This document shows, piece after piece, positions 1 through 38,979 of a stretch of 38,979 nt of DNA. The first letter of the stretch is position 1, and the number at the start of each line of letters is the position of its first letter. A program made the position numbers and the translations under genes. The notes under the pieces are model-generated. The model saw only the letters and a program-made list of their open reading frames with translations. It searched no databases and had not been told where the DNA came from. The stretch comes from Escherichia phage LM33_P1. The DNA lies in sequence record NC_031937.1. The stretch is one strand, 5' to 3'.

Positions 1-202
1 TTCAAGAACCTCAAGTCTCCCCATAGGCCCTCTTTCAGTCCAGACCAAAGGCCCTACCCGTTACTGCTCCTTGCAGTCACAGCCAGTCTATCATAAGGTT
101 GGACAGATGGTCAAGACTTAAGGTCAACGATAGGCTGAGGCTATGGCTTAGGGAAGGACGATAGGTTGGGACTATTGGTCTTCTTTGAGTCTCTATCTGT
201 AT

Positions 203-325
203 AACCATAAGTCACAACCATAGGTCACAGCCTACCTCTCACAACCATAAGTCATAACCTACAGTCTCACTAACCTACAGTCTCAACCATAAGACACCAA
301 CACCTACAGTCATAGACCTACAGTT
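203..325. repeat. Left-end array of short direct repeats (ACCATAAG x3-4 and CCTACAGT x4)
   Basis: Motifs recur at 10-40 nt spacing, read directly; position analogous to the short repeat arrays next to the terminal repeat in T7. Confidence 0.6.
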
Positions 326-435
326 AATAGACACAAGGCTATAGACTTAAGGTCTAAGACATGTTAGTCAAAGACTATATCCTCTTACACCATGGGGCCG
401 ACGATAGCTTAATCAATATTATTTCAAATTACCTA

Positions 436-470
436 TTGACTATAGGTCCAGACTATGGCCTAATAGCTTC
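436..470 (+). promoter_or_regulatory. Candidate host sigma70 early promoter (TTGACT -35, weak -10 CCTAAT/TAATAG, AT-rich upstream)
   Basis: TTGACT hexamer with 17-19 nt spacer to a -10-like hexamer; resembles T7 A1 layout. Confidence 0.35.
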
Positions 471-575
471 CGTCAACACGACACGGCAACAACCGGATAG
501 TGAAGACGCCGGTCCGGTCCGGTTAAGTAGTCAGCCTGTAAGACATACGAACAACAGGCAACCGACAGAAAGTAG

Positions 576-613
576 TTGACAGGCAGTAACGACTTAAAGT
601 AATATGTACCACA
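576..613 (+). promoter_or_regulatory. Host sigma70 early promoter (TTGACA - 18 nt - TAATAT), T7 A3-like
   Basis: Near-consensus -35 and -10 hexamers; downstream GTACCACAT..GAAAC resembles T7 A3 initiation region. Confidence 0.6.
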
Positions 614-727
614 TCGAAACAACGGTGATGACCAACACTGAATGGTCTACCTGAAGTCCTCTGACTGAAGGGAATGCTCTTTAACAATCTGGATAAACTC
701 TTAATGTGCGCCGATAGCGACTAACTA

Positions 728-775
728 CAGGGCCTTTGAGTCTACATCTGAAGGCCCTGACTGATAGTCACTAAC
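728..775 (+). promoter_or_regulatory. RNase III-type processing hairpin (CAGGGCCTT/AAGGCCCTG) plus conserved box ACTGATAGTCACTAAC
   Basis: 9-bp perfect inverted repeat followed by box that recurs at 1045-1092 and 1775-1820. Confidence 0.5.
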
Positions 776-782
776 TTAAAGG

Positions 783-1037
783 ATGGACACTATGAAACAC
801 TTAAGCACAATCACTAATCGCAATGAAGTATTCGTGAACACTAAAGGTTATGCGTGGATTCAGCTTAAAGAGATGACAGGAGCGCGTCACCGTGTGGTAG
901 TGCGCAAGGTATCAAGCAAGCAGTTCAGCAACTACAGCGTCGATACTGTGCGTATAGACAACGAGACATACCTGATAGACTCGCAGATAACCGTGAGTCC
1001 TACAGTGGGCGTCTCAGCTCCTTATTTCGCTAACTGA
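783..1037 (+). CDS. Hypothetical early protein (84 aa)
   Basis: ORF in early region, ATG preceded by AAAGGA, flanked by processing-site boxes; no recognised homolog. Confidence 0.55.
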   Translation: MDTMKHLSTITNRNEVFVNTKGYAWIQLKEMTGARHRVVVRKVSSKQFSNYSVDTVRIDNETYLIDSQITVSPTVGVSAPYFAN

Positions 1038-1044
1038 GAGTGAT

Positions 1045-1092
1045 TAACTACAGGTCGTTAGACTGATAGCGGCCTGACTGATAGTCACTAAC
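1045..1092 (+). promoter_or_regulatory. RNase III-type processing hairpin (CAGGTC/GGCCTG with G-U) plus box GACTGATAGTCACTAAC
   Basis: Second copy of conserved early intergenic box. Confidence 0.5.
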
Positions 1093-1120
1093 ACATAATT
1101 AACTTTGAGAGGATATAACT

Positions 1121-1624
1121 ATGGAACGTAATGCTAACGCATACTATGAGCTGCTGGCTGCAACCGTTGAGGCATTTATCGAGCGTATTCAGTACGACCA
1201 CCTGACTCAAGATGACGACTACAGCGCTGCGCTGCATGAGGTCGTAGACGGTCAGGTTCCACACTATTACCACGAGATTTTTACGGTGATGGCTGCTGAT
1301 GGTATAGACAACGAGTTCGAAGACTCTGGGATGATACCTGAAACCAAGGACGTAACGCGTATCCTACAAGCTCGCATCTATGAGGCACTTTATAACGACG
1401 TGTCTAATAGCTTGGATGTAGTCTGGTTTGAGGATGAAGAGGCAGACGAAGAGGATGAATATTGGGTAGTTGACGCTAAAACAGGCGCAATAATTGTGCA
1501 AGCTGTAGCTCTTGAGGTCGCTACTGCATGTGCCAAGGTCAACTATGTGATAGGTCGCCACCTTCAGGTGGAAGACATCAATGATAACGTAGTGTTTGAC
1601 CCTGCTGCTGAGGACTGCGAGTGA
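1121..1624 (+). CDS. ocr: Ocr-like anti-restriction DNA-mimic protein (T7 gene 0.3 homolog) with C-terminal extension
   Basis: Clear similarity to T7 Ocr (VPHYY..IF.VMA..GID.EFEDSG..P.TKDV.RILQARIYE); strongly acidic; RBS GAGAGG; 167 aa versus 117 aa in T7. Confidence 0.88.
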   Translation: MERNANAYYELLAATVEAFIERIQYDHLTQDDDYSAALHEVVDGQVPHYYHEIFTVMAADGIDNEFEDSGMIPETKDVTRILQARIYEALYNDVSNSLDVVWFEDEEADEEDEYWVVDAKTGAIIVQAVALEVATACAKVNYVIGRHLQVEDINDNVVFDPAAEDCE

Positions 1625-1774
1625 TGGTAACTTATGGCCTCTGCCAGCACCACGTCACTAACGCCCGGCTTATGGTCAAGACCGGGCAGTTAGACCACGA
1701 TTGGGCTATGCGTCTCTTGAAAGTGGTCTACAGGAGACGCAAGCGTATACACGACAGTTTACACGCTAAGTGAC

Positions 1775-1820
1775 AGACTACAGGTCATCAATGCTGGTGG
1801 CCTGACTGATAGTCATTAAC
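1775..1820 (+). promoter_or_regulatory. RNase III-type processing hairpin plus box GGCCTGACTGATAGTCATTAAC
   Basis: Third copy of conserved early intergenic box. Confidence 0.5.
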
Positions 1821-1836
1821 AACTGAGAGGGAAGAT

Positions 1837-2064
1837 ATGAACACAATCACTGGTGCCATAACCAAAGGTTTTCGAGCAATTTTCGGTGAAACGCAAGAAG
1901 TATGCACCAATCATAAATTCGTACTTTCTTGCGTAGCAGGTGACGAGTTTGACGGGTTCGATAAACTGGTGGTTTGCGACCATTGCGGACAAGAGGCTAT
2001 CCAACACTCAAACGGTAAATTTGAATTAATAGACGATAGCCTTACAGAAGGAGACGGCGAGTAA
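1837..2064 (+). CDS. Hypothetical early protein (75 aa) with Cys/His cluster (C..H...C...CDHC)
   Basis: ORF with RBS GAGAGGGAAG; possible small zinc-binding protein. Confidence 0.55.
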   Translation: MNTITGAITKGFRAIFGETQEVCTNHKFVLSCVAGDEFDGFDKLVVCDHCGQEAIQHSNGKFELIDDSLTEGDGE

Positions 2065-2137
2065 CCTAAATAAACAGGAGAGAACCAAATCATAGCTTGA
2101 CCATAACACTGACGTGATGGTACTGAGTGATAGACGA

Positions 2138-2166
2138 GAGGTCATCGACTGATAGGTGGCCTCAAA
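2138..2166 (+). promoter_or_regulatory. RNase III-type hairpin (GAGGTCA/TGGCCTC) with GACTGATAG loop
   Basis: Inverted repeat with G-U wobble, shares loop motif with the other early boxes. Confidence 0.4.
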
Positions 2167-2196
2167 GATTACCACTTACATTGATAGGAGTTAACT

Positions 2197-2301
2197 ATGA
2201 GCACTGCAATCATCTGGACTATCTCAGGCTTCGTAGCGTGGGGAATGTTTACTCTAGTCTGCAAACTACCGGTCCTTACTCAACTGTTATGGGGCTTATG
2301 A
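2197..2301 (+). CDS. Small hydrophobic early peptide (34 aa)
   Basis: ATG preceded by GATAGGAG; hydrophobic sequence MSTAIIWTISGFVAWGMFTLVCKLPVLTQLLWGL; below the ORF-track size cutoff. Confidence 0.35.
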   Translation: MSTAIIWTISGFVAWGMFTLVCKLPVLTQLLWGL

Positions 2302-2501
2302 CTATGAGTATCGCACTATTGATAGCCATAGGCTATGGACTTATCGCCTACGTGCTGGTGAGAGACATCAACAAAGCGCGTAAAGTCTACAAATTCAAAT
2401 ATGTACGTCTGGGTAGCTGGACTGTACGTCAACCTAACGGACGATTCATGCGTAACTTAGCGAACGTCTGGGATATAGCAACACTTGGGAGCAAACTGTA
2501 A
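2289..2501 (+). CDS. Small membrane protein (about 70 aa, one predicted TM helix)
   Basis: Internal ATG of track ORF 2127..2501; the upstream part of that ORF overlaps a hairpin site so the 2127 start is unlikely. Confidence 0.4.
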   Translation: MGLMTMSIALLIAIGYGLIAYVLVRDINKARKVYKFKYVRLGSWTVRQPNGRFMRNLANVWDIATLGSKL

Positions 2502-2827
2502 TGAACAAGTCATACGGGATTAATCTGGTACACTCTATGGACGCAGACATGCAAATGTTAAGCCTACTGGCTACCGGGTATCGTCACGGAACGTCAAGTC
2601 ACTCCGCACGTCAACAGCAGGAGCGGGACCGGGTACTGCAAGCAAGACTCCGGGCTGAGGGCCATAAGTCCGAACTAATGTGTCTGGTGTATGGTGGACG
2701 ACCAATCACTGACGATGGTAAACTTTTAGTCTCAGGCTGGAAGGCGATAGACCAACGGTCAACCATCAAGCACACGACTCATGGTGACTTCAGTCATCTC
2801 CACGCTAACCCGCTGATATGCAAGTAA
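2501..2827 (+). CDS. Hypothetical early protein (108 aa) at the position T7 gives to the 0.7 kinase
   Basis: ORF with ATG overlapping upstream stop (TAATG); no kinase motifs recognised. Confidence 0.55.
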   Translation: MNKSYGINLVHSMDADMQMLSLLATGYRHGTSSHSARQQQERDRVLQARLRAEGHKSELMCLVYGGRPITDDGKLLVSGWKAIDQRSTIKHTTHGDFSHLHANPLICK

Positions 2828-2832
2828 TTCTG

Positions 2833-2855
2833 ACTTAACTATCACTATAGGACTC
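2833..2855 (+). promoter_or_regulatory. Phage RNAP promoter variant (TTAACTATCACTATAGGAC) directly upstream of gene 1
   Basis: Matches the 11-member promoter family in this genome. Confidence 0.6.
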
Positions 2856-2924
2856 AAGGTCTAAGACTCCAAGTGAAAGACCAAAGAGACTTTAAGTGAA
2901 AGACTAATAACAAGGACTTTAAGT

Positions 2925-4892
2925 ATGAGCGTCATCTCTATTGACAAGCACGACTTCTCTGATGTGTCGAACGCCATTGAGCCGTTTAACCTACTGGCTG
3001 ACCACTACGGGCAAGACATTGCAGTCAAACAGCTTCAGCTTGAGCACGAGGCATACACTGAAGGCGAGCGACGTTTCATCAAGAACCTTGAGAGACAGAC
3101 TGAGCGAGGGGAACTGGCAGACAATCAGGTCGCCAAGCCTTTGATGCAGACTCTGGTCCCTAAGATTGCGCAAGCCGTCAAGGAGTGGCATGAAGGTCCA
3201 GACGGGAAGCTGTCAACCTCTCGTCCGAGCGTAGCGTTCACCATGTTGAGCACTGAAGAGAAGGCCGTAAAGGTCCGCTCTTTGCGCATCTCCTGCGAGT
3301 CTGCTGCGGTTATCATATTGAAGGTCATACTCTCCAAGCTGGTCAAGCCTGAAGGGATACCGATTACACCGATGGCCTCAGCGATAGGTCGCACACTTGA
3401 GGACGAAATCCGCTTCGGTCGCATCCGTGACAAGGAGAAAGAGCACTTCAAGAAGGCGATAGCTGATAACCTGAATAAGCGGGCCGGGGCGTCCTACAAG
3501 AAAGCCTACATGCAAGCGGTCGAGGCATCCATGCTGGAGCAAGGCCAACTGGAAGATGCGTGGGGGACTTGGAGTCCGACCGAGGCTGTCCACGTTGGAA
3601 TCAAGATGCTGGAGATTGTCATCCAGTCCACACAACTGGTCGAGCTTAAGCGTTACGGTGCTGGCAATGCAGCGGCTGACGTTGAGATGGTCCACCTGTC
3701 AGACTTCTGGGTCAAGAAGATGGCACAACGAGGATTCAGCCTTGCGGGTATAGCTCCAGTCTACCAGCCTTGCGTCGTTCCACCTAAGCCGTGGACTGGT
3801 GTCGTAGGCGGTGGGTACTGGGCCAAAGGACGCAGACCATTACCACTGATTCGCTTAGGGTCTAAGTCTGCGGTAGCACGCTACGAAGACGTGTATATGC
3901 CTGAAGTCTATGACGCTGTGAACATCATTCAGAATACACCTTGGAAAGTGAACAAGAAGGTTCTGGAAGTGGTGAACATGGTCGAGAAGCTGAACAACAC
4001 GCCTATTGATGACATCCCTCAGATGGAACCGCTGAAGCCTGAGGACTATGCGGGTGAGACTGAAGAAGAACTCAAGGCATGGAAGAAGGCTGCTGCTGGT
4101 ATCTATCGCCGCGAGAAGGCCAGACAGTCACGAAGATTGTCACTGAGCTTTATCGTCAACCAAGCGAACAAGTTCTCTCAGTTCAAGGCCATCTGGTTCC
4201 CGTATAACATGGACTGGCGCGGTCGCGTCTACGCTGTGCCGATGTTCAACCCTCAGGGTAACGACATGCAAAAGGGTCTTCTGACTCTGGCAGTCGGTAA
4301 GCCTATTGGTGCTGATGGTTTCAAATGGCTGAAGGTCCACGGTGCAAACTGCGCGGGTGTCGATAAAGTCACCTTCGAGGAGCGTATCAAGTGGGTGGAA
4401 GATAACCACGACAACATCATGGCTGCTGCCAAGGCACCGATGGATAGCATTGAGTGGTGGGGCAAGTTAGACTCTCCGTTCTGCTTCCTAGCGTTCTGCT
4501 TCGAGTATGCTGGCGTAATGCACCACGGCTTGTCTTACTCCTGCTCGCTGCCGATAGCGTTCGATGGGTCCTGCTCTGGGATTCAGCACTTCAGCGCTAT
4601 GCTTCGCGACCACATCGGTGGACATGCAGTAAACCTGACGCCATCCGGTAAGGTCCAAGACATCTACCGCATCGTGTCTGACCGCATTGAGGAGGAGCTT
4701 AAAGTCCTACTGGTTAACGGTACGGACAACGAGATGGTAACTCACGAGGACAAGAAAACTGGTGAGATTACCGAGCGTCTCAAGCTGGGGACACGAGAGC
4801 TTGCCCGTCAGTGGCTGACCTACGGTATGTCACGAAAGGTCACTAAGCGTTCGGTCATGACTCTGGCCTACGGGTCGAAAGAGTACGGCTGA
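2925..4892 (+). CDS. 1: T7-like single-subunit DNA-directed RNA polymerase, N-terminal 655 codons, ends at in-frame TGA
   Basis: Collinear similarity to T7 RNAP; ORF terminates ...MTLAYGSKEYG* where T7 continues ...GSKEFGFRQQ. Confidence 0.9.
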   Translation: MSVISIDKHDFSDVSNAIEPFNLLADHYGQDIAVKQLQLEHEAYTEGERRFIKNLERQTERGELADNQVAKPLMQTLVPKIAQAVKEWHEGPDGKLSTSRPSVAFTMLSTEEKAVKVRSLRISCESAAVIILKVILSKLVKPEGIPITPMASAIGRTLEDEIRFGRIRDKEKEHFKKAIADNLNKRAGASYKKAYMQAVEASMLEQGQLEDAWGTWSPTEAVHVGIKMLEIVIQSTQLVELKRYGAGNAAADVEMVHLSDFWVKKMAQRGFSLAGIAPVYQPCVVPPKPWTGVVGGGYWAKGRRPLPLIRLGSKSAVARYEDVYMPEVYDAVNIIQNTPWKVNKKVLEVVNMVEKLNNTPIDDIPQMEPLKPEDYAGETEEELKAWKKAAAGIYRREKARQSRRLSLSFIVNQANKFSQFKAIWFPYNMDWRGRVYAVPMFNPQGNDMQKGLLTLAVGKPIGADGFKWLKVHGANCAGVDKVTFEERIKWVEDNHDNIMAAAKAPMDSIEWWGKLDSPFCFLAFCFEYAGVMHHGLSYSCSLPIAFDGSCSGIQHFSAMLRDHIGGHAVNLTPSGKVQDIYRIVSDRIEEELKVLLVNGTDNEMVTHEDKKTGEITERLKLGTRELARQWLTYGMSRKVTKRSVMTLAYGSKEYG

Positions 4893-4926
4893 GGACATCG
4901 TGATGCCAGGGACATCGTGATGCCAG
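4893..4926 (+). repeat. Perfect 17-nt tandem direct repeat (GGACATCGTGATGCCAG x2) inside the RNAP gene
   Basis: Read directly; lies immediately 3' of the in-frame TGA (4890-4892). Confidence 0.9.
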
Positions 4927-5606
4927 CGATTGACTCAGGGTCTGGCGCTATGTTCACTGAACCAAGCCAAGCATCTCGCTTCATGGCTAAGATGATTTGG
5001 GAAGCTGTGAGTGTGACCGTAGTTGCTGCGGTTGACGCGATGAAATGGCTTCAGGGTGCTGCCAAGCTGCTTGCTGCTGAAGTGAAGGACAAGAAGACTG
5101 GAGAAATCCTGAAGCCTTGTCTTCCGGTACACTGGGTCACACCTGATGGTTTCCCTGTCTGGCAGGAATACCGCAAGAAGGACACCACTCGTCTGAACCT
5201 GATGTTCTTAGGGTCATTCAACCTTCAGCCTACCGTCAACAAAGGCACGAAGAAAGAGCTGGACAAGCACAAGCAGGAGTCAGGCATTAGCCCGAACTTC
5301 GTCCACTCACAAGATGGTAGCCACCTCCGCAAGACTGTAGTCCACACGCACCGCAAATATGGCGTGATGTCATTCGCAGTGATTCACGATAGCTTCGGGA
5401 CCATCCCGGCTGACGCTGAGTATCTGTTCCGTGGAGTCCGTGAGACGATGGTCGAGACCTACCGCGACAACGATGTGCTGCTTGACTTCTACGAGCAGTT
5501 TGAATACCAGCTTCACGAGAGCCAGAGAGACAAGTTGCCTGAGCTTCCGAAGAAAGGTAAACTGAATATCGAAGACATCTTGTCTTCAGACTTTGCATTC
5601 GCTTAA
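4917..5606 (+). CDS. 1: T7-like RNA polymerase, C-terminal 229 codons (same frame as N-terminal part)
   Basis: Similarity to T7 RNAP C-terminus through ...HDSFGTIPADA... to terminal FAFA; same frame as 2925..4892, separated by TGA plus 8 codons. Confidence 0.88.
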   Translation: MMPAIDSGSGAMFTEPSQASRFMAKMIWEAVSVTVVAAVDAMKWLQGAAKLLAAEVKDKKTGEILKPCLPVHWVTPDGFPVWQEYRKKDTTRLNLMFLGSFNLQPTVNKGTKKELDKHKQESGISPNFVHSQDGSHLRKTVVHTHRKYGVMSFAVIHDSFGTIPADAEYLFRGVRETMVETYRDNDVLLDFYEQFEYQLHESQRDKLPELPKKGKLNIEDILSSDFAFA

Positions 5607-5621
5607 CAACAGGAGAAGTAT

Positions 5622-5852
5622 ATGTCAATGAAACTTGTAGCACACAACAGGGTATTCAACGATGGGTCGGGACGTTGCCATGTAGAGCTGACTTATAAGG
5701 ATTTAATCATTCTCCGAGACAGATTACAGTCGGGTGTGACTGGGTGGATTCAACCTAACGAGTACAACCTTATAGCTTCGATTGATGAAGTTCTTAACGC
5801 GTGGATGGAAGACGAGCGCATTCAGTATCCGTCATTCCCTCTAATTAGATAA
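5622..5852 (+). CDS. Hypothetical protein (76 aa)
   Basis: ORF with RBS AGGAG immediately after gene 1; no T7 counterpart recognised. Confidence 0.55.
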   Translation: MSMKLVAHNRVFNDGSGRCHVELTYKDLIILRDRLQSGVTGWIQPNEYNLIASIDEVLNAWMEDERIQYPSFPLIR

Positions 5853-5862
5853 GGAGAGAGTT

Positions 5863-6078
5863 ATGAAATTTGCACACAAGCATACTGGCGTTAATGGTGG
5901 GACTCAAATCGTGACCGTAACAGAACACAACGGCAAGGGTCTGGTGAAGACCACGGTCATCCCTACCGAGATGTCCAAGCAGCTTAACATCCCGTTCAAG
6001 ACTCTTGTATATCTGGTCGAGTCCAGCCACGAGAAGTACCTGAAGGACGCAGTGTCCAAGCTGGAGCAGGCCAAATGA
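5863..6078 (+). CDS. Hypothetical protein (71 aa)
   Basis: ORF with strong RBS TAAGGAGAG. Confidence 0.6.
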   Translation: MKFAHKHTGVNGGTQIVTVTEHNGKGLVKTTVIPTEMSKQLNIPFKTLVYLVESSHEKYLKDAVSKLEQAK

Positions 6079-6153
6079 CAGACATACAGTTACTGGCCTT
6101 GTGGCTGGGAGCACTCGCAGTATTCACTTTAATCCAACGCAGAAGAGGTTAAC

Positions 6154-6176
6154 CCTAAACTATCACTATAGGATTA
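6154..6176 (+). promoter_or_regulatory. Phage RNAP promoter (CTAAACTATCACTATAGGATT)
   Basis: Consensus match; position equivalent to T7 phi1.1. Confidence 0.7.
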
Positions 6177-6215
6177 GACTCAAGGTCATGACTCAAAGTC
6201 GTGGCCTTCATGATT
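6177..6215 (+). promoter_or_regulatory. RNase III-type processing hairpin (AAGGTCA/TGGCCTT, G-U containing)
   Basis: Conserved box AGACTCAAGGTCAT...GTGGCCTTCATGATTA, also at 13110 and 35902. Confidence 0.5.
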
Positions 6216-6249
6216 AACCCTAAATAAACACTACTGGAGATTTAACCGT

Positions 6250-6429
6250 ATGTATCAGAACACTATCAACTTCGAGCGCATCCGTGAACGTCAGCAGACT
6301 GAAGGTTACATCCCTAAGGGCCGCAAGCTGAACAAGACTAAACGTGGAGGAGGTATCAAAGGTGCTTTCCGTAACGCTGAAGGTAAAGACTCTATGGTTA
6401 ACCAAGAGAAATACTTCGTAGGAGCATAA
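6250..6429 (+). CDS. 1.1: Gene 1.1-like small basic protein (59 aa)
   Basis: Similarity to T7 gp1.1 (..GRKLNKTKR..); position upstream of 1.2; below the ORF-track cutoff. Confidence 0.6.
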   Translation: MYQNTINFERIRERQQTEGYIPKGRKLNKTKRGGGIKGAFRNAEGKDSMVNQEKYFVGA

Positions 6430-6433
6430 CCAA

Positions 6434-6697
6434 ATGGGCAGACTTTATAGTGGCAACCTCAACGATTTCAAAGCAGCGTGTCACAGGCTTTATCAGTTAG
6501 ACTTCGCTGTCATATCTCAGGAGTTTCAAGACTATACGTCACGCCAAGAGTGTATGAAACTCAGGGTGGAGGACCGAGCTGGTAACATCTTCGCGCTTGA
6601 GACCTTCGCACACTACGATGAAGACGTGCTGTATAATACCGCAACCGACTACCTCAACGGTCTCGCTGACCATCTCGACACATGGAGCAAAGAATAA
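6434..6697 (+). CDS. 1.2: Gene 1.2 protein (host dGTPase inhibitor homolog)
   Basis: Strong similarity to T7 gp1.2 (MGRLYSGNL..FKAA....DEDVL). Confidence 0.85.
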   Translation: MGRLYSGNLNDFKAACHRLYQLDFAVISQEFQDYTSRQECMKLRVEDRAGNIFALETFAHYDEDVLYNTATDYLNGLADHLDTWSKE

Positions 6698-7785
6698 TGA
6701 CAACTATCAAAACTAACCCTCACCGCGCTGTAGATTACTCTGAGTCTGGAATTAAGAAGGCACTGGAAGCAGCCGGGTCTCTGGAAGCTGAAGTGAAGTA
6801 CGATGGTGTGCGCCTGAACCTCCTGGTCCTGCGTGAAGGTGAGACCTACTGGCTTAGCCGCGAGTCGAAACCTCTACCAGCCTTGGAGTGGATGAACTCT
6901 GAGTTAGGTAATGCGTGGACCCAAGCTGACTGGCGATGGTTCCTGCGTCAATCCGGCTACGAAGGTGTGGGCATGATGATTGATGGCGAGGTCATGGTCA
7001 AAGGTGTAGACTTCAACACCTCCTCAGGTCTCATCCGAACGAAGTGGCTCAAGCCTAACAACGAGGAGTTCGCTGAATACTATTCGCCGGCGACTGGTGG
7101 AAAGAAGCTCCCGTTCTGGGGATCCCGGTCACGACTTCAGGTTGTGGTCTACGGTGTCATCGACATGACAACCATTGCTGACCCGAAAGCCGAAGGTCCT
7201 ATCCATAGCGTCACACGCCTGAAGGCCGAAGCTATCGTCCCTCTCCTCCAGAAATACTTCCCGGAAATCGACTGGGTTCTGTCTGAGTCACACACGGTCT
7301 ATGACCTTGAGTCTCTCAACTCCCTGTACGAAGAGAAGCGTCTGGAAGGACACGAGGGTCTGGTAGTCAAGGACCCACTTGGTAAATACAAGCGCGGCAA
7401 GAAGTCAGGCATGTGGAAAATGAAGCCGGAGGACACCATTGATGGGACCGTGTGTGGACTCGTGTGGGGGACTCCTGGTAAGGCTAACGAAGGTAAGATC
7501 ATCGGCTTTGAGGTTCTACTGGAGGATGGCATGGTGGTCAACGCCTGCGGTCTGTCTGAAGAACAGAAGGACGGGTTTACGGCTAAGGTCAAGGAGGACA
7601 CGCTTGCTGCGGTTGGCATCTTTGCGCCGTACGGCATTGGTGGTAACGAACCTTGCTTCGATAACCCATACGAAGGCTGGCAGTGTGAAGTCCTCTTCAT
7701 GGAGAGGTTCCCTGATGGCTCCCTTCGTCACCCCAGCTTCAAGTGCTGGCGTGGAACCGAAGACAACCCAACGGTGAAGTCATGA
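6697..7785 (+). CDS. 1.3: ATP-dependent DNA ligase
   Basis: Similarity to T7 ligase including KYDGVR adenylation motif and C-terminal SLRHPSF..RGTEDNP; start taken at ATG overlapping the 1.2 stop (track ORF begins 6682). Confidence 0.9.
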   Translation: MTTIKTNPHRAVDYSESGIKKALEAAGSLEAEVKYDGVRLNLLVLREGETYWLSRESKPLPALEWMNSELGNAWTQADWRWFLRQSGYEGVGMMIDGEVMVKGVDFNTSSGLIRTKWLKPNNEEFAEYYSPATGGKKLPFWGSRSRLQVVVYGVIDMTTIADPKAEGPIHSVTRLKAEAIVPLLQKYFPEIDWVLSESHTVYDLESLNSLYEEKRLEGHEGLVVKDPLGKYKRGKKSGMWKMKPEDTIDGTVCGLVWGTPGKANEGKIIGFEVLLEDGMVVNACGLSEEQKDGFTAKVKEDTLAAVGIFAPYGIGGNEPCFDNPYEGWQCEVLFMERFPDGSLRHPSFKCWRGTEDNPTVKS

Positions 7786-7961
7786 GTACACAACTTTATA
7801 TCAACATAGCAAGTAGTCAACTCTACGCTGTGGTAAATGGCGAGCTGTGGTATCGTAAACTCAAGAAGTGGGCCAAGTCCTCCTACGATGAAGAGACAAT
7901 ATCAACCATGAGTCATCGCTACCGTAAGGCTGCTAAGGTGAACAACTTTAAGATGCGTTAA
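7782..7961 (+). CDS. Hypothetical small basic protein (59 aa)
   Basis: ATG overlapping ligase stop (ATGA); track ORF 7743..7961. Confidence 0.45.
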   Translation: MSTQLYINIASSQLYAVVNGELWYRKLKKWAKSSYDEETISTMSHRYRKAAKVNNFKMR

Positions 7962-7965
7962 CGTC

Positions 7966-7999
7966 AACCCAGTGGTCTTATGACTGCTGGGTTTCTTTG
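7966..7999 (+). terminator. Rho-independent terminator-like hairpin (AACCCAG/CTGGGTT) with U-tract; candidate early terminator TE
   Basis: 7-bp stem followed by TTTCTTTG, just upstream of a phage promoter. Confidence 0.5.
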
Positions 8000-8899: not shown

Positions 8900-8917
8900 A
8901 CTATCACTGTAGGACAG
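8895..8917 (+). promoter_or_regulatory. Phage RNAP promoter variant (CTAAACTATCACTGTAGGACAG)
   Basis: Consensus match with TG at -3/-2. Confidence 0.6.
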
Positions 8918-32100: not shown

Positions 32101-33052
32101 ACGTCAGGGCTTCCTGTCTGACATCGTGGAGCATAGCCTGACTGGTAGTAAGCGTAAGTTCGATGACCGCTGGCTGAAGACCGCTGGTATCTCTGACGAG
32201 CAGTGGAAGGGCATTAAGTCCCTAATCCGTGAGTCAGTGACTCGTGGTCCAGACGGGAAGTACACCATCAAGGATAAGAAGGCGTTCAGTCAGGACCCAA
32301 GGGCTATGGACCTCTGGCGTATGGGTGACACCATCGCTGACGAGACGTTACTCCGGCCTCATAAGCTGTCAAACATGGACGCCAAGGCTTATGGTCCTCT
32401 CGCTAAGACTGTCCTTCAGTTTAAGAACTTCGTCATCAAGTCTATCAATGGGAGAACCATGCGAACCTTCTATAACGCCACGAAGAACAACAGAGCGATT
32501 GACGCTGCACTGTCGACCGTGATGTCTATGGGTCTGGCTGGTATCTACTACATGGCTCAGGCGCATGTCAAGGCTTATGCTATGCAGGATGGTCGAGACC
32601 GTGACTACCTTAAGCAAGCTCTGGACCCAACGATGATTGGCTATGCGGCCCTGTCCCGTAGTTCACATCTTGGTGGCCCACTTGGGGTAGCTAACATTCT
32701 GGGTGGAATCGCTGGGTATGAGGACACTAAGATGCTCCGCTCGTCAATCCTTCCGCGCTCACCTACCGAGAAGACGGAGAAGCCAATCGCCTTTGGTGCT
32801 GCTTCCAGTGGTCCGGTAATGAATGTGGTCGGCAACTTCCTTGAGCAGGTCCCGGCTTTCGGCTATGCTGCTAACGTTGGTGCTACGGCTTACAACTTGG
32901 CGGGATACCTCAAGGCTGATACCCGTGTCAACGAGCGAGACTACATGACCGGGATGTATAACACGTTCCGTGAACTTGTACCGAATGACCCGATTACCCA
33001 GAAGTTGCTGCTTGGAACGTTTGAGGAGCAGGGCATCCACATCAAGGACTAA
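29165..33052 (+). CDS. 16: Internal virion protein D (ejection/core protein) with divergent N-terminal domain
   Basis: Collinear similarity to T7 gp16 over most of its length (DLVRSPTGMQSGASGK, ENPA.FG, YGISH.DQF..SS..EENI.GLVG.ENNSFLEARNLFDSD, RPHK.S, ALSRSS.LG.PL); start at ATG after AAGGAG (track ORF begins 29147). Confidence 0.9.
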   Translation: MATRGIRNNNPGNIRVSKDQWEGMTGDDGAFVTFDSPESGVRALGKNLLSYGRQGYDSIEKIINRWAPPNENDTKAYIDSVVAATGIPATQSLDLSDPDTLSSLAQAISFHETGSRYDPEVYQKGVARALNGISPKTPPVSANVFDALTEGLKAKPKVDLGENLPTAAGLNIEGQAPEAPNESFGEMFYKSTGETMQEREDRSTWFGFGSATEAEVKNSMVGVAIRAGQTEDSLDVIGDVFNPTRWNNHKWSREELDQIRNAGVLPQYYGVITGGSPQNLTELINLALENQKLDQEKAKAGIGAQLAAGVIGAGVDPLTYVPIAGQVGKGGKLVNKMFTVAAQSGALAGVSEMARTSVAGGDAHVAEAILGGALFGGGMTAIADGLGRALGRNTNEFAGPATRLEARETARNVDGQDLSRLPIQEGEQTFSHQGVKFADVPNEPGSVRLEDGSILIGENPLNPQTRKVFDEVIEPERAAAGVNLGGLTEIGLKLLRSENPEIRGVAADLVRSPTGMQSGASGKIGTTASDVFERLRAVDHRFYNDIDDAVTEALKDPYFQTAFWRDSGAFRQDIYQRVSMAIEDGSGNLKAELTPGELKVYDLLKNQFDAKREMMENPAMFGRPDAQSIFPGSRFKGTYVPHVYSNQMKELYIKELGSPEALQEAIKKSWLTSYASRPEVKKRVDEALLEADPTLTPEGLAAAVDKYANDKAYGISHTEQFERSSVMEENINGLVGLENNSFLEARNLFDSDMSIVLPNGQTFSVNNLREWDMDKIVPAYNRRVNGDIAIMAGTGKTTKDMKDLVETLMNKAGDDGKLKGEVSTLRDTLKILTGRARRDGADDAAFATVMRTMTDLSFFAKNAYMGVQNLTEIGGMLARGNVRAMLHGVPIFRDLAFRNKKVGASEIKDLHNVIFGKELDDSIRPSKQDVIDRLRSYSDLGRGTATALGTAKYYTGELAVRSPFTKVLNGTTNYLLDAGRQGFLSDIVEHSLTGSKRKFDDRWLKTAGISDEQWKGIKSLIRESVTRGPDGKYTIKDKKAFSQDPRAMDLWRMGDTIADETLLRPHKLSNMDAKAYGPLAKTVLQFKNFVIKSINGRTMRTFYNATKNNRAIDAALSTVMSMGLAGIYYMAQAHVKAYAMQDGRDRDYLKQALDPTMIGYAALSRSSHLGGPLGVANILGGIAGYEDTKMLRSSILPRSPTEKTEKPIAFGAASSGPVMNVVGNFLEQVPAFGYAANVGATAYNLAGYLKADTRVNERDYMTGMYNTFRELVPNDPITQKLLLGTFEEQGIHIKD

Positions 33053-33070
33053 ACTATCACTATAGGAAAC
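33048..33070 (+). promoter_or_regulatory. Phage RNAP promoter (CTAAACTATCACTATAGGAAAC)
   Basis: Consensus match; position equivalent to T7 phi17. Confidence 0.75.
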
Positions 33071-33116
33071 TGGAGGCGCTACCATAGGTCTCCGTTTAAA
33101 TCACAAAGGAGGCATA

Positions 33117-35297
33117 ATGTCCACGATTACACAATTCCCTTCAGGAAACACTCAGTACAGGATAGAGTTCGACTACCTAGCCAGAACGTTTGTTGTTGTT
33201 ACGCTGGTGAATAGCTCTAACCCTACCCTGAACCGTGTACTGGAAGTTGGTCGAGATTACCGATTCCTTAATCCAACGATGATTGAGATGTTGGCTGACC
33301 AATCAGGTTTCGACATCGTTCGTATTCACCGTCAGACTGGAACTGACTTAGTGGTAGACTTCAGGAATGGCTCAGTGTTGACAGCTAGTGACCTGACCAA
33401 TTCAGAGCTTCAGGCTATCCATATTGCAGAAGAAGGTCGAGACCAAACGGTTGACTTAGCGAAGGAATATGCCGATGCTGCTGGTAGCTCTGCTGGCAAC
33501 GCTAAGGATAGCGAGGACGAATCACGCCGAATCGCTGCGAGTATCAAGGCAGCTGGTAAAATTGGCTATATTACCCGTCGCTCCTTCGAGAAAGGCTTCA
33601 ACGTTACAACATGGAACGAGGTCCTGCTATGGGAAGAGGATGGTGATTATTACCGCTGGGATGGTACGCTTCCAAAGAACGTTCCCGCTGGTTCAACTCC
33701 TGAATCATCTGGTGGTATTGGGCTGAGTGCGTGGGTTAGTGTTGGTGATGCGTCACTTAGAGCAAACCTGGCTGATAGTGATGGCGCTAAATACATAGGC
33801 AGTGGAGAAAGGACATTACTTGAGCACAACAATGATGTTTTGCACTCAAAAGACTTTCCAACACTGCAGGCAGCTATAGATGCATCTTTGCAAAAAAATG
33901 ATCTACTGGTGTCTCCTGGCAATTATACTGAAAAAGTTACTATTGGAAACGCGCAGTTAAAAGGTGTTGGCGGGGCCACGGTACTAAAAACTCCGGCAGA
34001 CTTTACAAACACTGTTCAGGTTAATTTAGCTACACCTCATTGGCAATTCCGCCATAGTGGTGGTTTTGCTATAGATGGTTCCGGGACAACCGGGGCCGTA
34101 GGTATTAGTTTTGACCCGTCAGACCAATATTCCGGACGTCATAATTTTAGTGATGTATACATCCACAACATCAACAAGGCCATTCAGAAGCCTTCCGGGA
34201 ACATCGGCAATACTTGGAGAAATATTGGGATATCTACGTGTGATTGGGGGTATTACGCGATTAGTGGCTCAGAGATGCATTGCGGGGCCGATACCCTCTA
34301 CAATATCCACTTCGATGGCATCTCCACCTATGCAGTCTATCTAGACGGCACTGTCGATAATGGCGGGGGGGGCGCATGGTGGCTTAAAGACTCCATTATT
34401 GAGGCTTCCGGAGGTGGCGGGATATACTTAAAAAGTAAATCGGGCGACTGTCCTACATCTCCATGCGGGGTATCCAATATATGGATGGAAGCGATCGCAA
34501 CATCACCGGCTGTTCAGGTAGACGGCGTGGCGCAAAAACCGCGAGTTCTCAAGTTGGTAGACACAGCGATATTCTTTGCTGAGTATTCTTATCTCAACAA
34601 CATCGAGCTATCCAACTCCAACTTAGTAACTTATGGTTGCCGTTTTGACAACGCTGATGGCAATCAGGATATTGTCGTGGATGCACAAAGTACCATTGTA
34701 GCCCATGACGTGTATTTAAACGGCAGTTCTGGAAAGGACGTTATTGTGGAGTCCGTAGCATCGCAATCTGCAACGATAGCTGCCACAAACTTATCTCTGA
34801 GGGGCAACTTAACAAGAGGGAGAGTATTTAATACGCCGACAGGGAATAAATTAATGGCTATCACATTTGACTCAGGTAGCCATAATTTTTCTGGCAGCGG
34901 CACCGTTAACGGTTCGACTGTATCTGACGGACTTCACGCCGCTACATGTACCGAATTTTCATTCCCCGGAGCCGGTTTATATGAAATGGTAGCGACAAGA
35001 ACAACCATTACATCCGGTAGATGGTACGTGTGGGGAGTTAACTCACGCCTACAATCTGGCTCGGCGGATATTAGTATAACGTCAGGTATTACCATGGGTA
35101 GTGTTTACACAAAGCCGGGGGAGTGGATTAGCACTTTCGGTGTAGGAAAGGCATCTACCACTGGCACTGTAGCGCTATACGTTTCCACAGGAGGAGGTTC
35201 GGGAGCTACGGTCAGATTCAGTGACTTTTTCATCGCTGAGTTTACGACGCAAGCTCAGGCTTTAGCTTTCGCCAATTCAAGGATGTCGTTATCATAA
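33117..35297 (+). CDS. 17: Tail fibre/tailspike: T7 gp17-like N-terminal domain fused to beta-helix-type C-terminal receptor-binding/depolymerase-like module
   Basis: N-terminal roughly 150-220 aa resemble T7 gp17 (F.YLAR.FVVVTL......L....DYRF, H.AEE.RD); C-terminal portion is Gly/Ser/Thr-rich with repetitive beta-strand pattern and distinct AT-richer codon usage. Confidence 0.88.
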   Translation: MSTITQFPSGNTQYRIEFDYLARTFVVVTLVNSSNPTLNRVLEVGRDYRFLNPTMIEMLADQSGFDIVRIHRQTGTDLVVDFRNGSVLTASDLTNSELQAIHIAEEGRDQTVDLAKEYADAAGSSAGNAKDSEDESRRIAASIKAAGKIGYITRRSFEKGFNVTTWNEVLLWEEDGDYYRWDGTLPKNVPAGSTPESSGGIGLSAWVSVGDASLRANLADSDGAKYIGSGERTLLEHNNDVLHSKDFPTLQAAIDASLQKNDLLVSPGNYTEKVTIGNAQLKGVGGATVLKTPADFTNTVQVNLATPHWQFRHSGGFAIDGSGTTGAVGISFDPSDQYSGRHNFSDVYIHNINKAIQKPSGNIGNTWRNIGISTCDWGYYAISGSEMHCGADTLYNIHFDGISTYAVYLDGTVDNGGGGAWWLKDSIIEASGGGGIYLKSKSGDCPTSPCGVSNIWMEAIATSPAVQVDGVAQKPRVLKLVDTAIFFAEYSYLNNIELSNSNLVTYGCRFDNADGNQDIVVDAQSTIVAHDVYLNGSSGKDVIVESVASQSATIAATNLSLRGNLTRGRVFNTPTGNKLMAITFDSGSHNFSGSGTVNGSTVSDGLHAATCTEFSFPGAGLYEMVATRTTITSGRWYVWGVNSRLQSGSADISITSGITMGSVYTKPGEWISTFGVGKASTTGTVALYVSTGGGSGATVRFSDFFIAEFTTQAQALAFANSRMSLS

Positions 35298-35441
35298 AAA
35301 CAACCTCAGCCGAATCGGGTTATTTATCATCAGAACGGTATTGAATCATCGAAGGTTGTGGAGGTAGAGGCTAACTACACGTTGACCAACGTATGATAAC
35401 AACTTTGGGTCACGGACGACCCGCTTTAAACTGGAGGTTTT

Positions 35442-35636
35442 ATGATTGAGTTAGACTTCAAGAATGAGGTCCTCAAAGCCTCGCCTATCGTCGGGACCGC
35501 TGCGGCTGATGGTGCCAGTCGGTTCTTCTTTGGGCTAACGCTCAACGAATGGTTCTACGTCGCTGCTATCGCGTACACCGTGGTGCAGATTGGCGTCCTA
35601 ATTTACAAGACGATTAAGAGCGGAGGTAAGACATGA
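35442..35636 (+). CDS. 17.5: Holin (class II, T7 gp17.5-like)
   Basis: Similarity to T7 holin (..LDF.NE..KA.PIVGT..AD...R.FFGL.LNEWFYVAAIAYTVVQIG). Confidence 0.8.
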   Translation: MIELDFKNEVLKASPIVGTAAADGASRFFFGLTLNEWFYVAAIAYTVVQIGVLIYKTIKSGGKT

Positions 35637-35896
35637 CGCAGATGGACTTAGAGAAGTTCCTGTTAATGCTGGACACAGAACGTGCTAGACTAATGCTGCA
35701 AGACCTGCGGGATGACACTAAGCGTTCACCTCAGCTCTACAACGCCATTGAGAAACTGCTTGCTCGACACAACTTTGTGTTAAGCAAGGTGTCTGTGGAC
35801 GAGAAGACGCTGGCGGATATGGAGGCCTTGAACGAAGAGTACGATAAGGTGCTTTCAGCTACTGAGGATAATGACACCGGGTATGGTGTTCAATAA
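35633..35896 (+). CDS. 18: Terminase small subunit
   Basis: Similarity to T7 gp18 (..FL.MLDT..A..ML.DL.D...RSPQLYNAI.KLL.RH.F). Confidence 0.8.
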   Translation: MTQMDLEKFLLMLDTERARLMLQDLRDDTKRSPQLYNAIEKLLARHNFVLSKVSVDEKTLADMEALNEEYDKVLSATEDNDTGYGVQ

Positions 35897-35901
35897 GTGT
35901 T

Positions 35902-35935
35902 AGACTCAAGGTCATCGTCAGGTGGCCTTTATGGT
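35902..35935 (+). promoter_or_regulatory. RNase III-type processing hairpin (AAGGTCA/TGGCCTT) upstream of gene 18.5
   Basis: Third copy of box TAGACTCAAGGTCAT...GGTGGCCTTTATGGTTA; position matches T7 R18.5. Confidence 0.5.
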
Positions 35936-35992
35936 TAACACTGACTAGTGGAGGCGACTCTACGTTAAATCTGATAAACCGGGAGGGCAACT

Positions 35993-36442
35993 ATGCTCGA
36001 ATTTTTAAAGAGAGCGGCTCCGTGGTTACTTGCAGCAGTGATGTTTGCTGGTGGCTACCACACCGCTAACAATAAGTGGGAGGCTAAGGTCAATGCAGAA
36101 TACACCTCGAATCTTAAGGCATCGGAAGATACAAGGCTTGCTGTCCAAGCTGAAGTCAACAAAGTGTCCAAACGGTTTCAGGACGAAATGTCCTCGCTGG
36201 AAGGCAGCACTGATAGGATTATTGCTGACCTTCAGTCTGACAATAAGCGGTTGCGCATCCGAGTCAAACCAACGAGTGGAACCACGCAAAGTGACGGTCG
36301 ATGCTTCATTGATGGTTACGCCGAACTTGACGAACGAGATGCTAAACGTCTTATCGCCATCGGAGTGAAAGGAGACAAGTGGATTAAGGCCCTTCAAGAC
36401 ACTGTGAGAGCCTTACAGCAAGAGAAGGAGGTGACGCATTGA
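35993..36442 (+). CDS. 18.5: Rz-like i-spanin
   Basis: Similarity to T7 gp18.5 (MLEFL....PW.LA...[30 protein letters not shown]...GD.WI.ALQDT.R.LQ). Confidence 0.8.
36093..36368 (+). CDS. 18.7: Rz1-like o-spanin lipoprotein embedded in +1 frame within Rz
   Basis: Embedded ORF encodes signal-like [15 protein letters not shown] with lipobox-like ISGC and C-terminal ..MV.PNLT.EMLNV; start codon uncertain. Confidence 0.55.
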   Translation: MQNTPRILRHRKIQGLLSKLKSTKCPNGFRTKCPRWKAALIGLLLTFSLTISGCASESNQRVEPRKVTVDASLMVTPNLTNEMLNVLSPSE

Positions 36443-38202
36443 GTAAAGACTTAGTGGCGCGTCAGGCGCTAATGACTGCACGTATGAAGTCAGACTTCGT
36501 GTTCTTCCTGTTCGTCCTGTGGAAAGCTCTGTCGCTCCCAGTCCCGACTCGCTGTCAGATTGACATGGCGAAGAAACTATCGGCTGGGGACAACAGGCGC
36601 TTCATCCTACAGGCGTTCCGTGGTATAGGGAAGTCCTTCATTACGTGTGCCTTCGTTGTCTGGAAGCTATGGAACAACCCAGACTTGAAGTTCATGATTG
36701 TGTCGGCCTCAAAGGAGCGAGCCGATGCTAACTCCATCTTCATCAAGCGAATCATCGACCTCATGCCTCAGCTTCAGGAACTCAAACCTAAGCAGGGACA
36801 GCGAGATGCGGTTATTAGCTTCGACGTGGGACCTGCCAAGCCAGACCACTCACCTTCGGTTAAGTCCGTTGGTATCACTGGTCAGTTGACTGGTAGTCGT
36901 GCTGACATCCTGATTGCCGATGACGTGGAGGTTCCGAACAACTCAGCGACTCAGGCTGCACGAGACCGTCTATCAGAGCTTGTGAAAGAGTTCGACGCTA
37001 TCCTGAAGCCGGGAGGTACGATCATCTATCTGGGTACTCCTCAGAACGAGATGACCCTGTACCGTGAGCTGGAAGGTCGTGGGTACACCACTACTATCTG
37101 GCCCGCTCGTTATCCACGCGACAGGAAGGACTGGCAGTCTTACGGCGACCGTCTGGCTCCTATGCTTCAGGAAGAGCTGGAAGAGGACCCTGAGTCCTTC
37201 TACTGGCGTCCGACTGATGAAGTACGCTTCGATGATACGGACCTGAAGGAACGTGAGCTGTCCTACGGTAAAGCTGGCTTCGCTCTACAGTTCATGCTTA
37301 ACCCGAACCTGAGTGATGCCGAGAAGTACCCTCTTAAGCTCCGTGACCTTATCGTAGCCGACTTGGACCCAGCGTCCAGCCCAATGGTCTACCAATGGTT
37401 GCCGAACCCTCAGAACAAGCGTGAGGACGTTCCTAACGTTGGACTCATGGGTGACTCGTACCACACGTATCAGACTGTAGGTTCTGCCTTCAGCTCATAC
37501 ACCCAGAAGATTCTGGTCATTGACCCTAGTGGTCGTGGTAAGGATGAAACTGGATATGCGGTACTGTACCAGCTCAACGGCTACATCTTCGCTATGGAAG
37601 TTGGTGGCATGCGTGGTGGTTATGAAGACTCTACGCTGGAAGCCTTGGCTAAGATTGGTCGTAAGTGGAGGGTCAACGAATACGTCATTGAGGGTAACTT
37701 CGGTGATGGTATGTACCTTGAGTTATTCAAGCCTGTAGCTGCCCGTATCCATCCTGCTGCTGTAACTGAAGTGAAGAGTAAGGGTCAGAAAGAACTCCGC
37801 ATCTGTGACGTTCTGGAGCCTATCATGGGGTCTCACAGACTTATCGTTAACGCTGCCGCTATCGTCCAAGACTACCAGTCAGCCTCTGATAAGGATGGTG
37901 TTCGTAACCCTATCTACTCTCTCTTCTACCAGATGACTCGTATCTCTCGTGAACGTGGAGCATTGGCACATGATGACCGACTTGATGCGCTGGCTATCGG
38001 TGTACAGTTCTTCGTTGAGTCGATGGCTAAGGATGCCAACAAAGGCGAACGTGAAGTCACTGAGGAGTGGCTGGAGGAACAGATGGAGAACCCACGGAAA
38101 GGCTTCGAGTCCATCCACACTGAGTTCTGGGACAATGGGGTCCGGGTAACTCACGATACGGACGACGAGCTTGGACTAGGGTCATACGTTACGTTCCACT
38201 AG
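36439..38202 (+). CDS. 19: Terminase large subunit
   Basis: Extensive similarity to T7 gp19 ([83 protein letters not shown]); apparent TTG start 5 nt after AAGGAGGTGA. Confidence 0.93.
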
Positions 38203-38212
38203 CTGAATGAAT

Positions 38213-38260
38213 AACTATAGGTGAAAGCTGCATTAATAAGCAGCTAGTAACCTATAGTTA
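38213..38260. repeat. Nested palindrome (outer 10-bp AACTATAGGT/ACCTATAGTT, inner 6-bp AGCTGC/GCAGCT) after terminase gene
   Basis: Perfect inverted repeats read directly; arms contain promoter-core-like ACTATAGG. Confidence 0.7.
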
Positions 38261-38296
38261 CTACCAGTCTAACATACTGTTTTACAAGGAGTTTGG

Positions 38297-38319
38297 ACTT
38301 AACTATCACTATAGGGAAG
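38297..38319 (+). promoter_or_regulatory. Phage RNAP promoter (GACTTAACTATCACTATAGGGAAG), right-end promoter analogous to T7 phiOR
   Basis: Consensus match. Confidence 0.7.
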
Positions 38320-38499
38320 ACCCCCGGTTACTTATAGTATTACTATAGTGAATATACATATGCAGACTTTATGCAAGACCTTAGGAGGCAGACTCCGAGT
38401 TCTTACCTAAGGCTTGCACCGATGGAAGGAGGGTGATATTAATCATAATCCCTCCAATACAGATAGTCACCGACCATAGATACAGGAGGTATGTAGCAT

Positions 38500-38658
38500 A
38501 TGGCAAAGACCAAAGCTGTACTTAAAGCTCTGGCGACCAATCGAGCTACATACAGGTTTCTTACTGCTGTTCTACTTGCTGCTGGCGTTACTGCTGGAAG
38601 TCAGTGGGTCGGGTGGGTCGAGACTCTCGTATGTTCTCTGGTCTCTCAGTGTAATTAA
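38500..38658 (+). CDS. Small hydrophobic protein (52 aa) in the gene 19.5 position
   Basis: ATG 9 nt after AGGAGGT; below the ORF-track cutoff. Confidence 0.4.
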   Translation: MAKTKAVLKALATNRATYRFLTAVLLAAGVTAGSQWVGWVETLVCSLVSQCN

Positions 38659-38694
38659 CGCAATCATGATAACAATCAACGAAAGGAGGTAGGG

Positions 38695-38763
38695 ATGGAC
38701 GAGGAGTCTTATGGGTCGTTCTCTGACGAAGATTATCAGACGGAGTGGGAATACGCGCATTGA
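38695..38763 (+). CDS. Possible acidic mini-protein (22 aa)
   Basis: ATG 5 nt after AAAGGAGGT; MDEESYGSFSDEDYQTEWEYAH. Confidence 0.25.
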   Translation: MDEESYGSFSDEDYQTEWEYAH

Positions 38764-38767
38764 AGAC

Positions 38768-38935
38768 CTAAGGTCAGTTCATAGCTGACGCTACTCTACT
38801 GACCTTAGCTACTGTAGTCAAGGACTTTAGGTAACACCTTAAGAGAAGCTCACTTAGGGTCATCCTACTTATTGGTCTATCCTAGTGTCGCCTGACCTAC
38901 GGTCCTTGACCTACAGTGGCTGTGGCCTACAGTAG
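38768..38935. repeat. Right-end region with 10-bp inverted repeat (CTAAGGTCAG/CTGACCTTAG) and CCTACAGT/CCTACGGT direct repeats
   Basis: Same CCTACAGT motif as the left-end array; window ends ...CATCTCACAC resembling the T7 terminal-repeat start TCTCACAG. Confidence 0.5.
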
Positions 38936-38979
38936 TGACGATGAGTTTTGGACAAAAAGTTTGAGACCACATCTCACAC

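Follow-up and report, generated by a model that had tools for sequence, protein, structure and literature searches.

The closest described systems to the DNA considered here are the K1F-like coliphages of the genus Kayfunavirus and phage T7. The ends of SH3, SH4 and SH5 were determined by run-off sequencing of virion DNA, and the direct terminal repeat (DTR) of K1F is given as 179 bp (PMC4925675). In T7, the polymerase-lysozyme complex pauses at the class II (CJ) signal and interacts with gp18/gp19, upon which maturation and packaging start, according to the passage of PMC3276506 that cites Zhang and Studier (2004). The core of this signal has seven bases, ATCTGTT, and on the non-template strand it follows an A, C or T (bioRxiv 10.64898/2026.02.12.705533). 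The packaging of T7 phagemids is described as requiring an origin, a pac site and the terminal repeat in the passage of PMC13236587 that cites Chung and Hinkle (1990). Short-read assemblers commonly delete DTRs, and the collapse of these repeats is documented for T7-like phages (PMC10438801). The present analysis concerns the genome ends of Escherichia phage LM33_P1 (NC_031937.1), a phage used in therapy studies; the whole stretch of 38,979 nt that was analysed is referred to as the window. Its two ends very probably form a single T7-type concatemer junction, and the virion DNA would be linear, of ~39,181 bp, with a 202-bp repeat at both ends.

The window is the genome of LM33_P1, a K1F-like coliphage of the genus Kayfunavirus. 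In a BLAST search of a phage collection the closest match was OZ035813.1 (Kayfunavirus LM33P1); this record is likewise 38,979 bp long, and both window ends were 100% identical to it. The next-closest matches were K1F-like coliphages at 90-97% identity. A base-by-base comparison revealed that the window corresponds to OZ035813.1 rotated by 3376 nt, with 12 mismatches, every one of them within 4891-4909. The T7-like character assigned to the sequence in a preliminary description, which was made from the letters alone, was supported by a PF22530 terminase (E 1e-37) and by 11 phage-type promoters; an Ocr gene was also found in the window.

The ends of LM33_P1 were placed by homology to relatives with defined ends, which located one repeat copy in two parts:

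38972..38979, + strand: predicted first 8 nt of the DTR, TCTCACAC, placed by alignment to the starts of relatives
1..194, + strand: predicted remainder (repeat bases 9-202) of the one DTR copy, placed by alignment to relatives with a two-ended DTR

The DTR would thus comprise 38972-38979 plus 1-194, 202 bp in all, with the left physical end of the virion DNA predicted at 38972 and the concatemer probably cut between 38971 and 38972. It was observed that the records of K1F, Vec13, SH3, SH4 and HC12 begin with TCTCACAGTTCAAGAACC, and that exact DTRs starting with these same bases are present at both ends of K1F (178 bp), Vec13 (179 bp), SH3 (184 bp) and SH4 (191 bp). Base 1 of the window (TTCAAGAACC...) corresponds to base 9 of these four repeats, and its final 8 bases, TCTCACAC, correspond to repeat bases 1-8 with one mismatch. 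When the same 8 bases were compared with TCTCACAG, the first 8 bases of T7, K1F, Vec13, SH3, SH4 and HC12, 7 of 8 positions matched, and CCCCATAGG occupied repeat positions 27-35, as it does in T7. When ten Kayfunavirus junctions were aligned (a slash marks the repeat boundary here and below), ...GGACCAAAAGTTTGAGACCACA/TCTCACAGTTCAAGAACC was identical in the nine relatives, the window departing from it only at 38954 and 38979. The junction ...GAGACCACA/TCTCACAGTTCAAG was likewise found in nine Kayfunavirus relatives, and in the window with the exception of its final C. HC12, which is 97% identical and carries the same insert in its DTR, has a deposited start of exactly TCTCACAG and an end of ...GAGACCACA.

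No 20-mer of the predicted repeat was present twice in the whole window. Together with the start at repeat base 9, this indicates that the record contains the repeat only once and that it was opened 8 nt into that copy, and the record reads as a closed circle cut 8 bases inside the terminal repeat. In all likelihood, the assembly collapsed the two repeat copies into one and was then linearised at this point. The deposited sequence would therefore lack one 202-bp repeat copy, its first base lying 8 nt off the true end, and with a true genome length of ~39,181 bp the LM33_P1 coordinates should be re-based; the practical value of the finding is one of annotation. These results agree with the preliminary description in that it had proposed a linear genome with one terminal-repeat copy, opened slightly off its physical end, and had recognized a resemblance of the last bases to the start of the T7 repeat. 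It had put the window start some tens of nt into the repeat, which has to be corrected, the offset being exactly 8 nt.

Further observations were made on the sequence of the repeat and its borders. The eighth repeat base (38979) is C in the window and G in ten relatives (the nine aligned and HC12) and in T7, and position 38954 is A in the window and C in the nine aligned relatives and HC12. Both bases are present in OZ035813.1 too; they may represent true variation beside the site of terminase cutting, or else errors close to the end of a contig. Relative to K1F, Vec13 and SH3, the DTR carries a 24-nt insert at about 59-82 of the window, which includes a small palindrome, ACTGCtccttGCAGT, and is common to LM33_P1 and HC12. 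The site is variable among lineages: SH4 and phi1_146013 carry TAGACCTTCGGTCTA there and Bas105 a close variant, TAGACCTTTGGTCTA, nothing is present in K1F, Vec13, SH3 and AN24P4, and T7 carries CAACCTTCGGTTG at a similar repeat position. A leftward sigma-70-like promoter was recognized inside the DTR on the minus strand (114-85; TTGACC, 18 nt, TAGACT, with an upstream TG), and it may correspond to A0, the leftward promoter that the T3 and T7 annotations show. The record of Salmonella phage vB Seyj3-1 (MW416012.1) leaves the other Kayfunavirus junctions ~120 nt after TCTCACAG, partway through the repeat, and continues into a gene annotated as primase/helicase, which suggests a misassembly or a rearrangement.

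The right edge of the repeat adjoins a conserved element that had been missed in the preliminary description:

195..201, + strand: ATCTGTA, putative counterpart of the T7 class II pause/termination signal ATCTGTT, adjoining the right edge of the DTR

The right boundary reads ...GAGTCTCT/ATCTGTA in LM33_P1, in exact agreement with Vec13 and SH4, and ...GTGTCCCT/ATCTGTT in T7, T3 and K11. The repeat of T7 (160 bp), T3 (231 bp), K11 (181 bp), Vec13 and SH4 runs exactly up to ATCTGT(T/A). The exact repeat of K1F stops 1 nt before this point and that of SH3 5 nt after it, gh-1 has one motif copy inside the repeat and one just outside, and in SP6 ATCTGTT spans the repeat boundary. The K11 record annotates positions 180-188 as 'concatemeric junction'. 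In the window, T-ATCTGTA at 194-201 has the position and orientation of the T7 class II core and matches 6 of its 7 bases, the ATCTGTA variant being conserved in Kayfunavirus and also seen in gh-1. CTATCTGTAT was kept in nine of the ten aligned Kayfunavirus junctions, i.e. in every intact one examined. By analogy with T7, ATCTGTA may act as a pause for the K1F-type polymerase of LM33_P1 itself. The invariant context of the cut site and the ATCTGT(T/A) motif appear to be the better-supported junction signals, ahead of the arrays that flank the repeat, and among the processing signals of the region the motif seems to have the best support.

A second copy of CTATCTGTAT was found in inverted orientation (38457-38466, minus strand), between the last phage promoter and gene 19.5; by our own estimate, ~0.07 such decamers would be expected by chance. 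This copy is present in all nine Kayfunavirus relatives whose retrieved stretch covers the site, and it was not found in the right ends of T7, T3 and K11.

Short-repeat arrays were detected on both sides of the DTR, with a conserved spacer next to the cut site:

203..332, + strand: left array, putative counterpart of T7 SRL, nine units, from Tandem Repeats Finder and direct reading
38896..38933, + strand: right array, putative counterpart of T7 SRR, three units, from direct reading, 39-76 nt before the DTR start
38934..38971, + strand: conserved spacer AGTGACGATGAGTTTTGGACAAAAAGTTTGAGACCACA between the right array and the cut site, near-identical in 10 Kayfunavirus genomes

The octamer CCTACAGT was found 12 times on both strands of the whole window, against 1.9 expected. 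Eight of the 12 are on the + strand, including all the copies at the ends, and six of these eight lie in the 400 nt that flank the predicted DTR: four on the left at 258-324 (starts 258, 274, 303 and 317) and two on the right at 38910-38933 (starts 38910 and 38926). From the rest of the genome, 0.02 copies would be expected in these flanks (Poisson P ~1e-13). Tandem Repeats Finder called a tandem-like array at 203-332, its periods being 13-16 and 27-29. On inspection of the sequence, the left units start at 205, 218, 231, 245, 258, 274, 287, 303 and 317 (spacing 13-16 nt, span 205-324); four of them are CCTACAGT, four are CCATA(A/G)G(T/A) and the remaining one is a degenerate CCTACCTC. On the right are CCTACGGT at 38896 and CCTACAGT at 38910 and 38926, spaced by 14 and 16 nt. 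The sharing between left and right was scored by multiplying the counts of each 7-mer in two 200-nt blocks, 202 nt apart, and taking the highest product. A score of 8 was obtained at the LM33_P1 ends and a maximum of 3 in 748 control pairs from the same genome; the matching octamer arrays noticed at both ends in the preliminary description are thereby confirmed. No copy of CCTACAG was present inside the LM33_P1 DTR.

Across the 10 Kayfunavirus genomes the right array block is nearly invariant. The 28 nt beside the cut site are identical in nine relatives, the window differing there only at 38954, with A for C. No significant secondary structure was detected in the spacer (z -0.26). The copy number and the unit order of the left array vary among Kayfunavirus genomes, with 4-7 CCTACAG in those counted.

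For eight genomes, the comparison was extended to the 200-nt stretches that flank the repeat on either side. In all eight, the top (or tied-top) heptamer of the left side was also repeated on the side of the right end, and the motif varied with the lineage:

T7: CCTAAAG, 8 copies right of the left repeat and 2 left of the right repeat
T3: CCTAAAG and CCTGTAG, 2 and 2 copies right of the left repeat, 4 and 2 left of the right repeat
K11: ACCTGAG, 3 copies right of the left repeat and 2 left of the right repeat
Kayfunavirus: CCTACAG, 4-7 copies right of the left repeat and 1-2 left of the right repeat
gh-1: CCATAGG, 4 copies right of the left repeat and 2 left of the right repeat
SP6: CTTAGTG, 4 copies right of the left repeat and 2 left of the right repeat

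In the compared lineages all array copies are on the same strand. In the window, T7, T3 and SP6 the units recur every 12-16 nt; in K11 and gh-1 the phasing is less regular. The CCTACAGT/CCATAAGT arrays of LM33_P1 appear from these features to be the counterparts of the T7 arrays SRL and SRR, names which we take to go back to Dunn and Studier (1983).

That the arrays serve in junction processing is a plausible idea, though an unproven one even for T7, and no experimental role for T7-type flanking arrays was found in the searchable literature. The preliminary description had regarded them as candidates for concatemer-junction processing signals; they do lie in the right place, with co-variation of left and right in six lineages, and the role as such is still conjecture. 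Our best guess is that they would act as multivalent binding sites, set in phase, for a phage DNA-binding protein that is particular to the lineage and belongs to the maturation machinery, the small terminase being the prime candidate. A more specific version of this idea is put forward only tentatively. It holds that a co-evolving, lineage-specific DNA-binding protein (e.g. a small terminase that forms oligomers and wraps DNA carrying a site every 12-16 nt) would read both arrays and mark both cut sites of the concatemer junction, the switches of motif acting as a specificity code for the packaging of the phage's own DNA. If true, this would give a function to T7 elements for which that literature offers none.

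As the main alternative, the arrays could be functionless products of slippage or unequal crossover in a short AT-rich non-coding motif, their left/right likeness being kept by recombination between the flanks of neighbouring junctions in concatemers. Such an origin, which we consider possible but rather doubtful, would agree with a left array whose copy number and order of units differ even between closely related Kayfunavirus genomes, with the intermingling of two unit types and with the lack of a reported experimental function. However, two-sided arrays on the same strand, phased by 12-16 nt, in six lineages with six motifs, one of them from another subfamily (SP6), are hard to explain without selection. 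The near invariance of the right array in Kayfunavirus points in the same direction, although it may just reflect the identity of at least 95% of the whole region.

A reading of the arrays as degenerate phage-promoter cores in inverted orientation, which would serve as decoy or binding sites for the RNA polymerase, is very improbable. CCTACAGT matches the reverse-complemented promoter core (CCTATAGT, from ACTATAGG) at 7/8 positions, and one of its minus-strand matches, at 8906, is a promoter variant, CACTGTAGGA, but the units lack the upstream specificity region of the promoters. Moreover, the T3 arrays resemble the forward T3 core and the ACCTGAG units of K11 resemble neither orientation, if the promoters of both phages are what we take them to be. 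The link between the arrays and a reversed promoter core was rejected, the 7/8 match seen here being inconsistent in T3 and K11. The primase pentamers of T7, which we take to be GGGTC, TGGTC and GTGTC, were rejected as well, since the units read CAGTC, AAGTC and AGGTC.

Finally, a circularly permuted genome with headful packaging, whose T7-like ends would come from a chance opening of the circle by the assembler, would fit a record without a duplicated end and the deposition of the same genome in another rotation (OZ035813.1), as assemblers do with circular contigs, but it is exceedingly improbable in view of the T7-type terminase, of a junction that agrees base for base with relatives in which fixed ends were read from virion DNA and of the documented collapse of DTRs into circular contigs in T7-like phages, and nothing in the sequence data of the window or its relatives supports it.

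Several points weigh against the T7-type concatemer junction with its flanking arrays. The physical ends of LM33_P1 itself are deduced from relatives instead of observed, and its eighth repeat base is C where every relative examined has G. The pause motif ATCTGTA is not the strict T7 core, from which it differs at the seventh base. After the left array no phiOL-type promoter was detected within 3 mismatches, whereas T7, T3 and K11 have one. The hairpin-primed duplication proposed for T7 cannot be mapped here because no significant hairpin was found left of the repeat; the sole strong inverted repeat near the junction lies ~165-205 nt upstream of the DTR. With regard to the arrays, the left copy number varies freely among close relatives, which argues against a strict requirement, and recombination or slippage could keep the left/right match without any binding protein. 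A hairpin or cruciform immediately left of the repeat was also considered and rejected, the DNA fold of 38860-38979 being no better than those of shuffled sequences (z -0.26).

With the window ends taken as a T7-type concatemer junction, LM33_P1 would mature its DNA as T7 and T3 do. The steps are those of the T7/T3 literature, applied to LM33_P1 by homology, the anatomy and the homology being what the present data contribute. Replication would produce head-to-tail concatemers with one repeat per junction. Late transcription from 38301-38317 would pass the right array and the repeat and pause at ATCTGTA (195-201), and the paused polymerase would help to bring the terminase (gp18/gp19) with the prohead. 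The terminase would cut at ...ACCACA/TCTCACA.. and at the right edge of the repeat, and DNA synthesis would duplicate the repeat, resulting in two copies per packaged genome.

A packaging gene and a promoter were located upstream of the right array:

36439..38202, + strand: gene 19, large terminase, which would cut at the junction, assigned by PF22530 and Terminase_6N
38301..38317, + strand: last phage-RNA-polymerase promoter, positional counterpart of phiOR, a perfect match to the 17-nt consensus

The open reading frame (ORF) 36439-38202 matched PF22530 Terminase-T7 RNaseH-like, the T7-specific nuclease domain, with an E value of 1.3e-37. The phage promoter AACTATCACTATAGGRA gave 11 matches in the window, against 0.13 expected. 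T7 and K11 annotate phiOR at the corresponding position, after gene 19, and by analogy the promoter at 38301-38317 would direct transcription rightward across the junction of concatemeric DNA.

At 38768-38808, directly behind the last small ORF, there is an 11-bp inverted repeat with perfectly matching arms, CTAAGGTCAGT/ACTGACCTTAG. Folded as RNA, it reached -22.4 kcal/mol (z -2.6). Its arms are invariant in nine of the ten aligned Kayfunavirus genomes, FFK3 having one substitution, and its loop is variable. At a comparable position, gh-1 annotates a putative RNase III site.

The sole difference between the window and OZ035813.1 is a same-length overwrite of 19 nt at 4891-4909 that copies the adjacent 19-mer, thereby creating a perfect tandem repeat of 17 bp x2 at 4893-4926 (Tandem Repeats Finder). 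It falls in a gene the homologous region of which is annotated as RNA polymerase in relatives. The overwrite also creates an in-frame TGA at 4890-4892, which splits this gene into ORFs 2925-4892 (655 aa) and 4917-5606 (229 aa): OZ035813.1 reads ...KEYGFADQVYEDIVMPAID... and the window ...KEYG*GHRDARDIVMPAID.... The replacement preserves the length, which is unlike slippage, and the gene is essential; the overwrite therefore looks like an artefact of the record or an edit, and it is probably not biology.

In comparison with known systems, the junction of LM33_P1 is near base-identical to those of the Kayfunavirus members with defined ends, namely K1F (DQ111067), Vec13 (MH400309), the Citrobacter phages SH3 and SH4, and HC12. 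These K1F-like relatives share the start of the DTR, its end ...CT/ATCTGTA, the right array and the kind of left array. LM33_P1 differs from them in the length of its DTR, which is 202 bp due to the 24-nt insert shared with HC12, in its eighth base (C, not G) and position 38954 (A, not C), and in a record with one DTR copy that starts 8 nt late.

The likeness to T7 includes the TCTCACAG start, a C-run plus ATAGG at repeat positions 27-35, the end of the repeat immediately before ATCTGT, same-strand heptamer arrays on both sides with a phasing of ~13 nt, and a last phage promoter upstream of the right array. On the other hand, the units are CCTACAG/CCATAAG in LM33_P1 and CCTAAAG in T7, the pause core is ATCTGTA instead of ATCTGTT, and the repeat is 202 bp long instead of 160 bp. 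Moreover, no phiOL promoter follows the LM33_P1 left array, and T7 has CCTAAAG copies inside its repeat whereas the LM33_P1 repeat is free of CCTACAG.

T3, K11 and gh-1 (Studiervirinae) and SP6 (Molineuxvirinae) resemble LM33_P1 in having a DTR of 174-231 bp, ATCTGT(T/A) at or across its right boundary and a lineage-specific heptamer repeated on both flanks. They differ from it in the heptamers (CCTAAAG/CCTGTAG in T3, ACCTGAG in K11, CCATAGG in gh-1 and CTTAGTG in SP6), and gh-1 and SP6 also in their terminal start bases. LM33_P1 is one more case of a family-wide pattern, a repeat bounded by TCTCACAG and ATCTGT with matching lineage-specific arrays. This architecture is the long-known genome end of the T7 group, and it leaves the current picture of T7-type DNA maturation unchanged.

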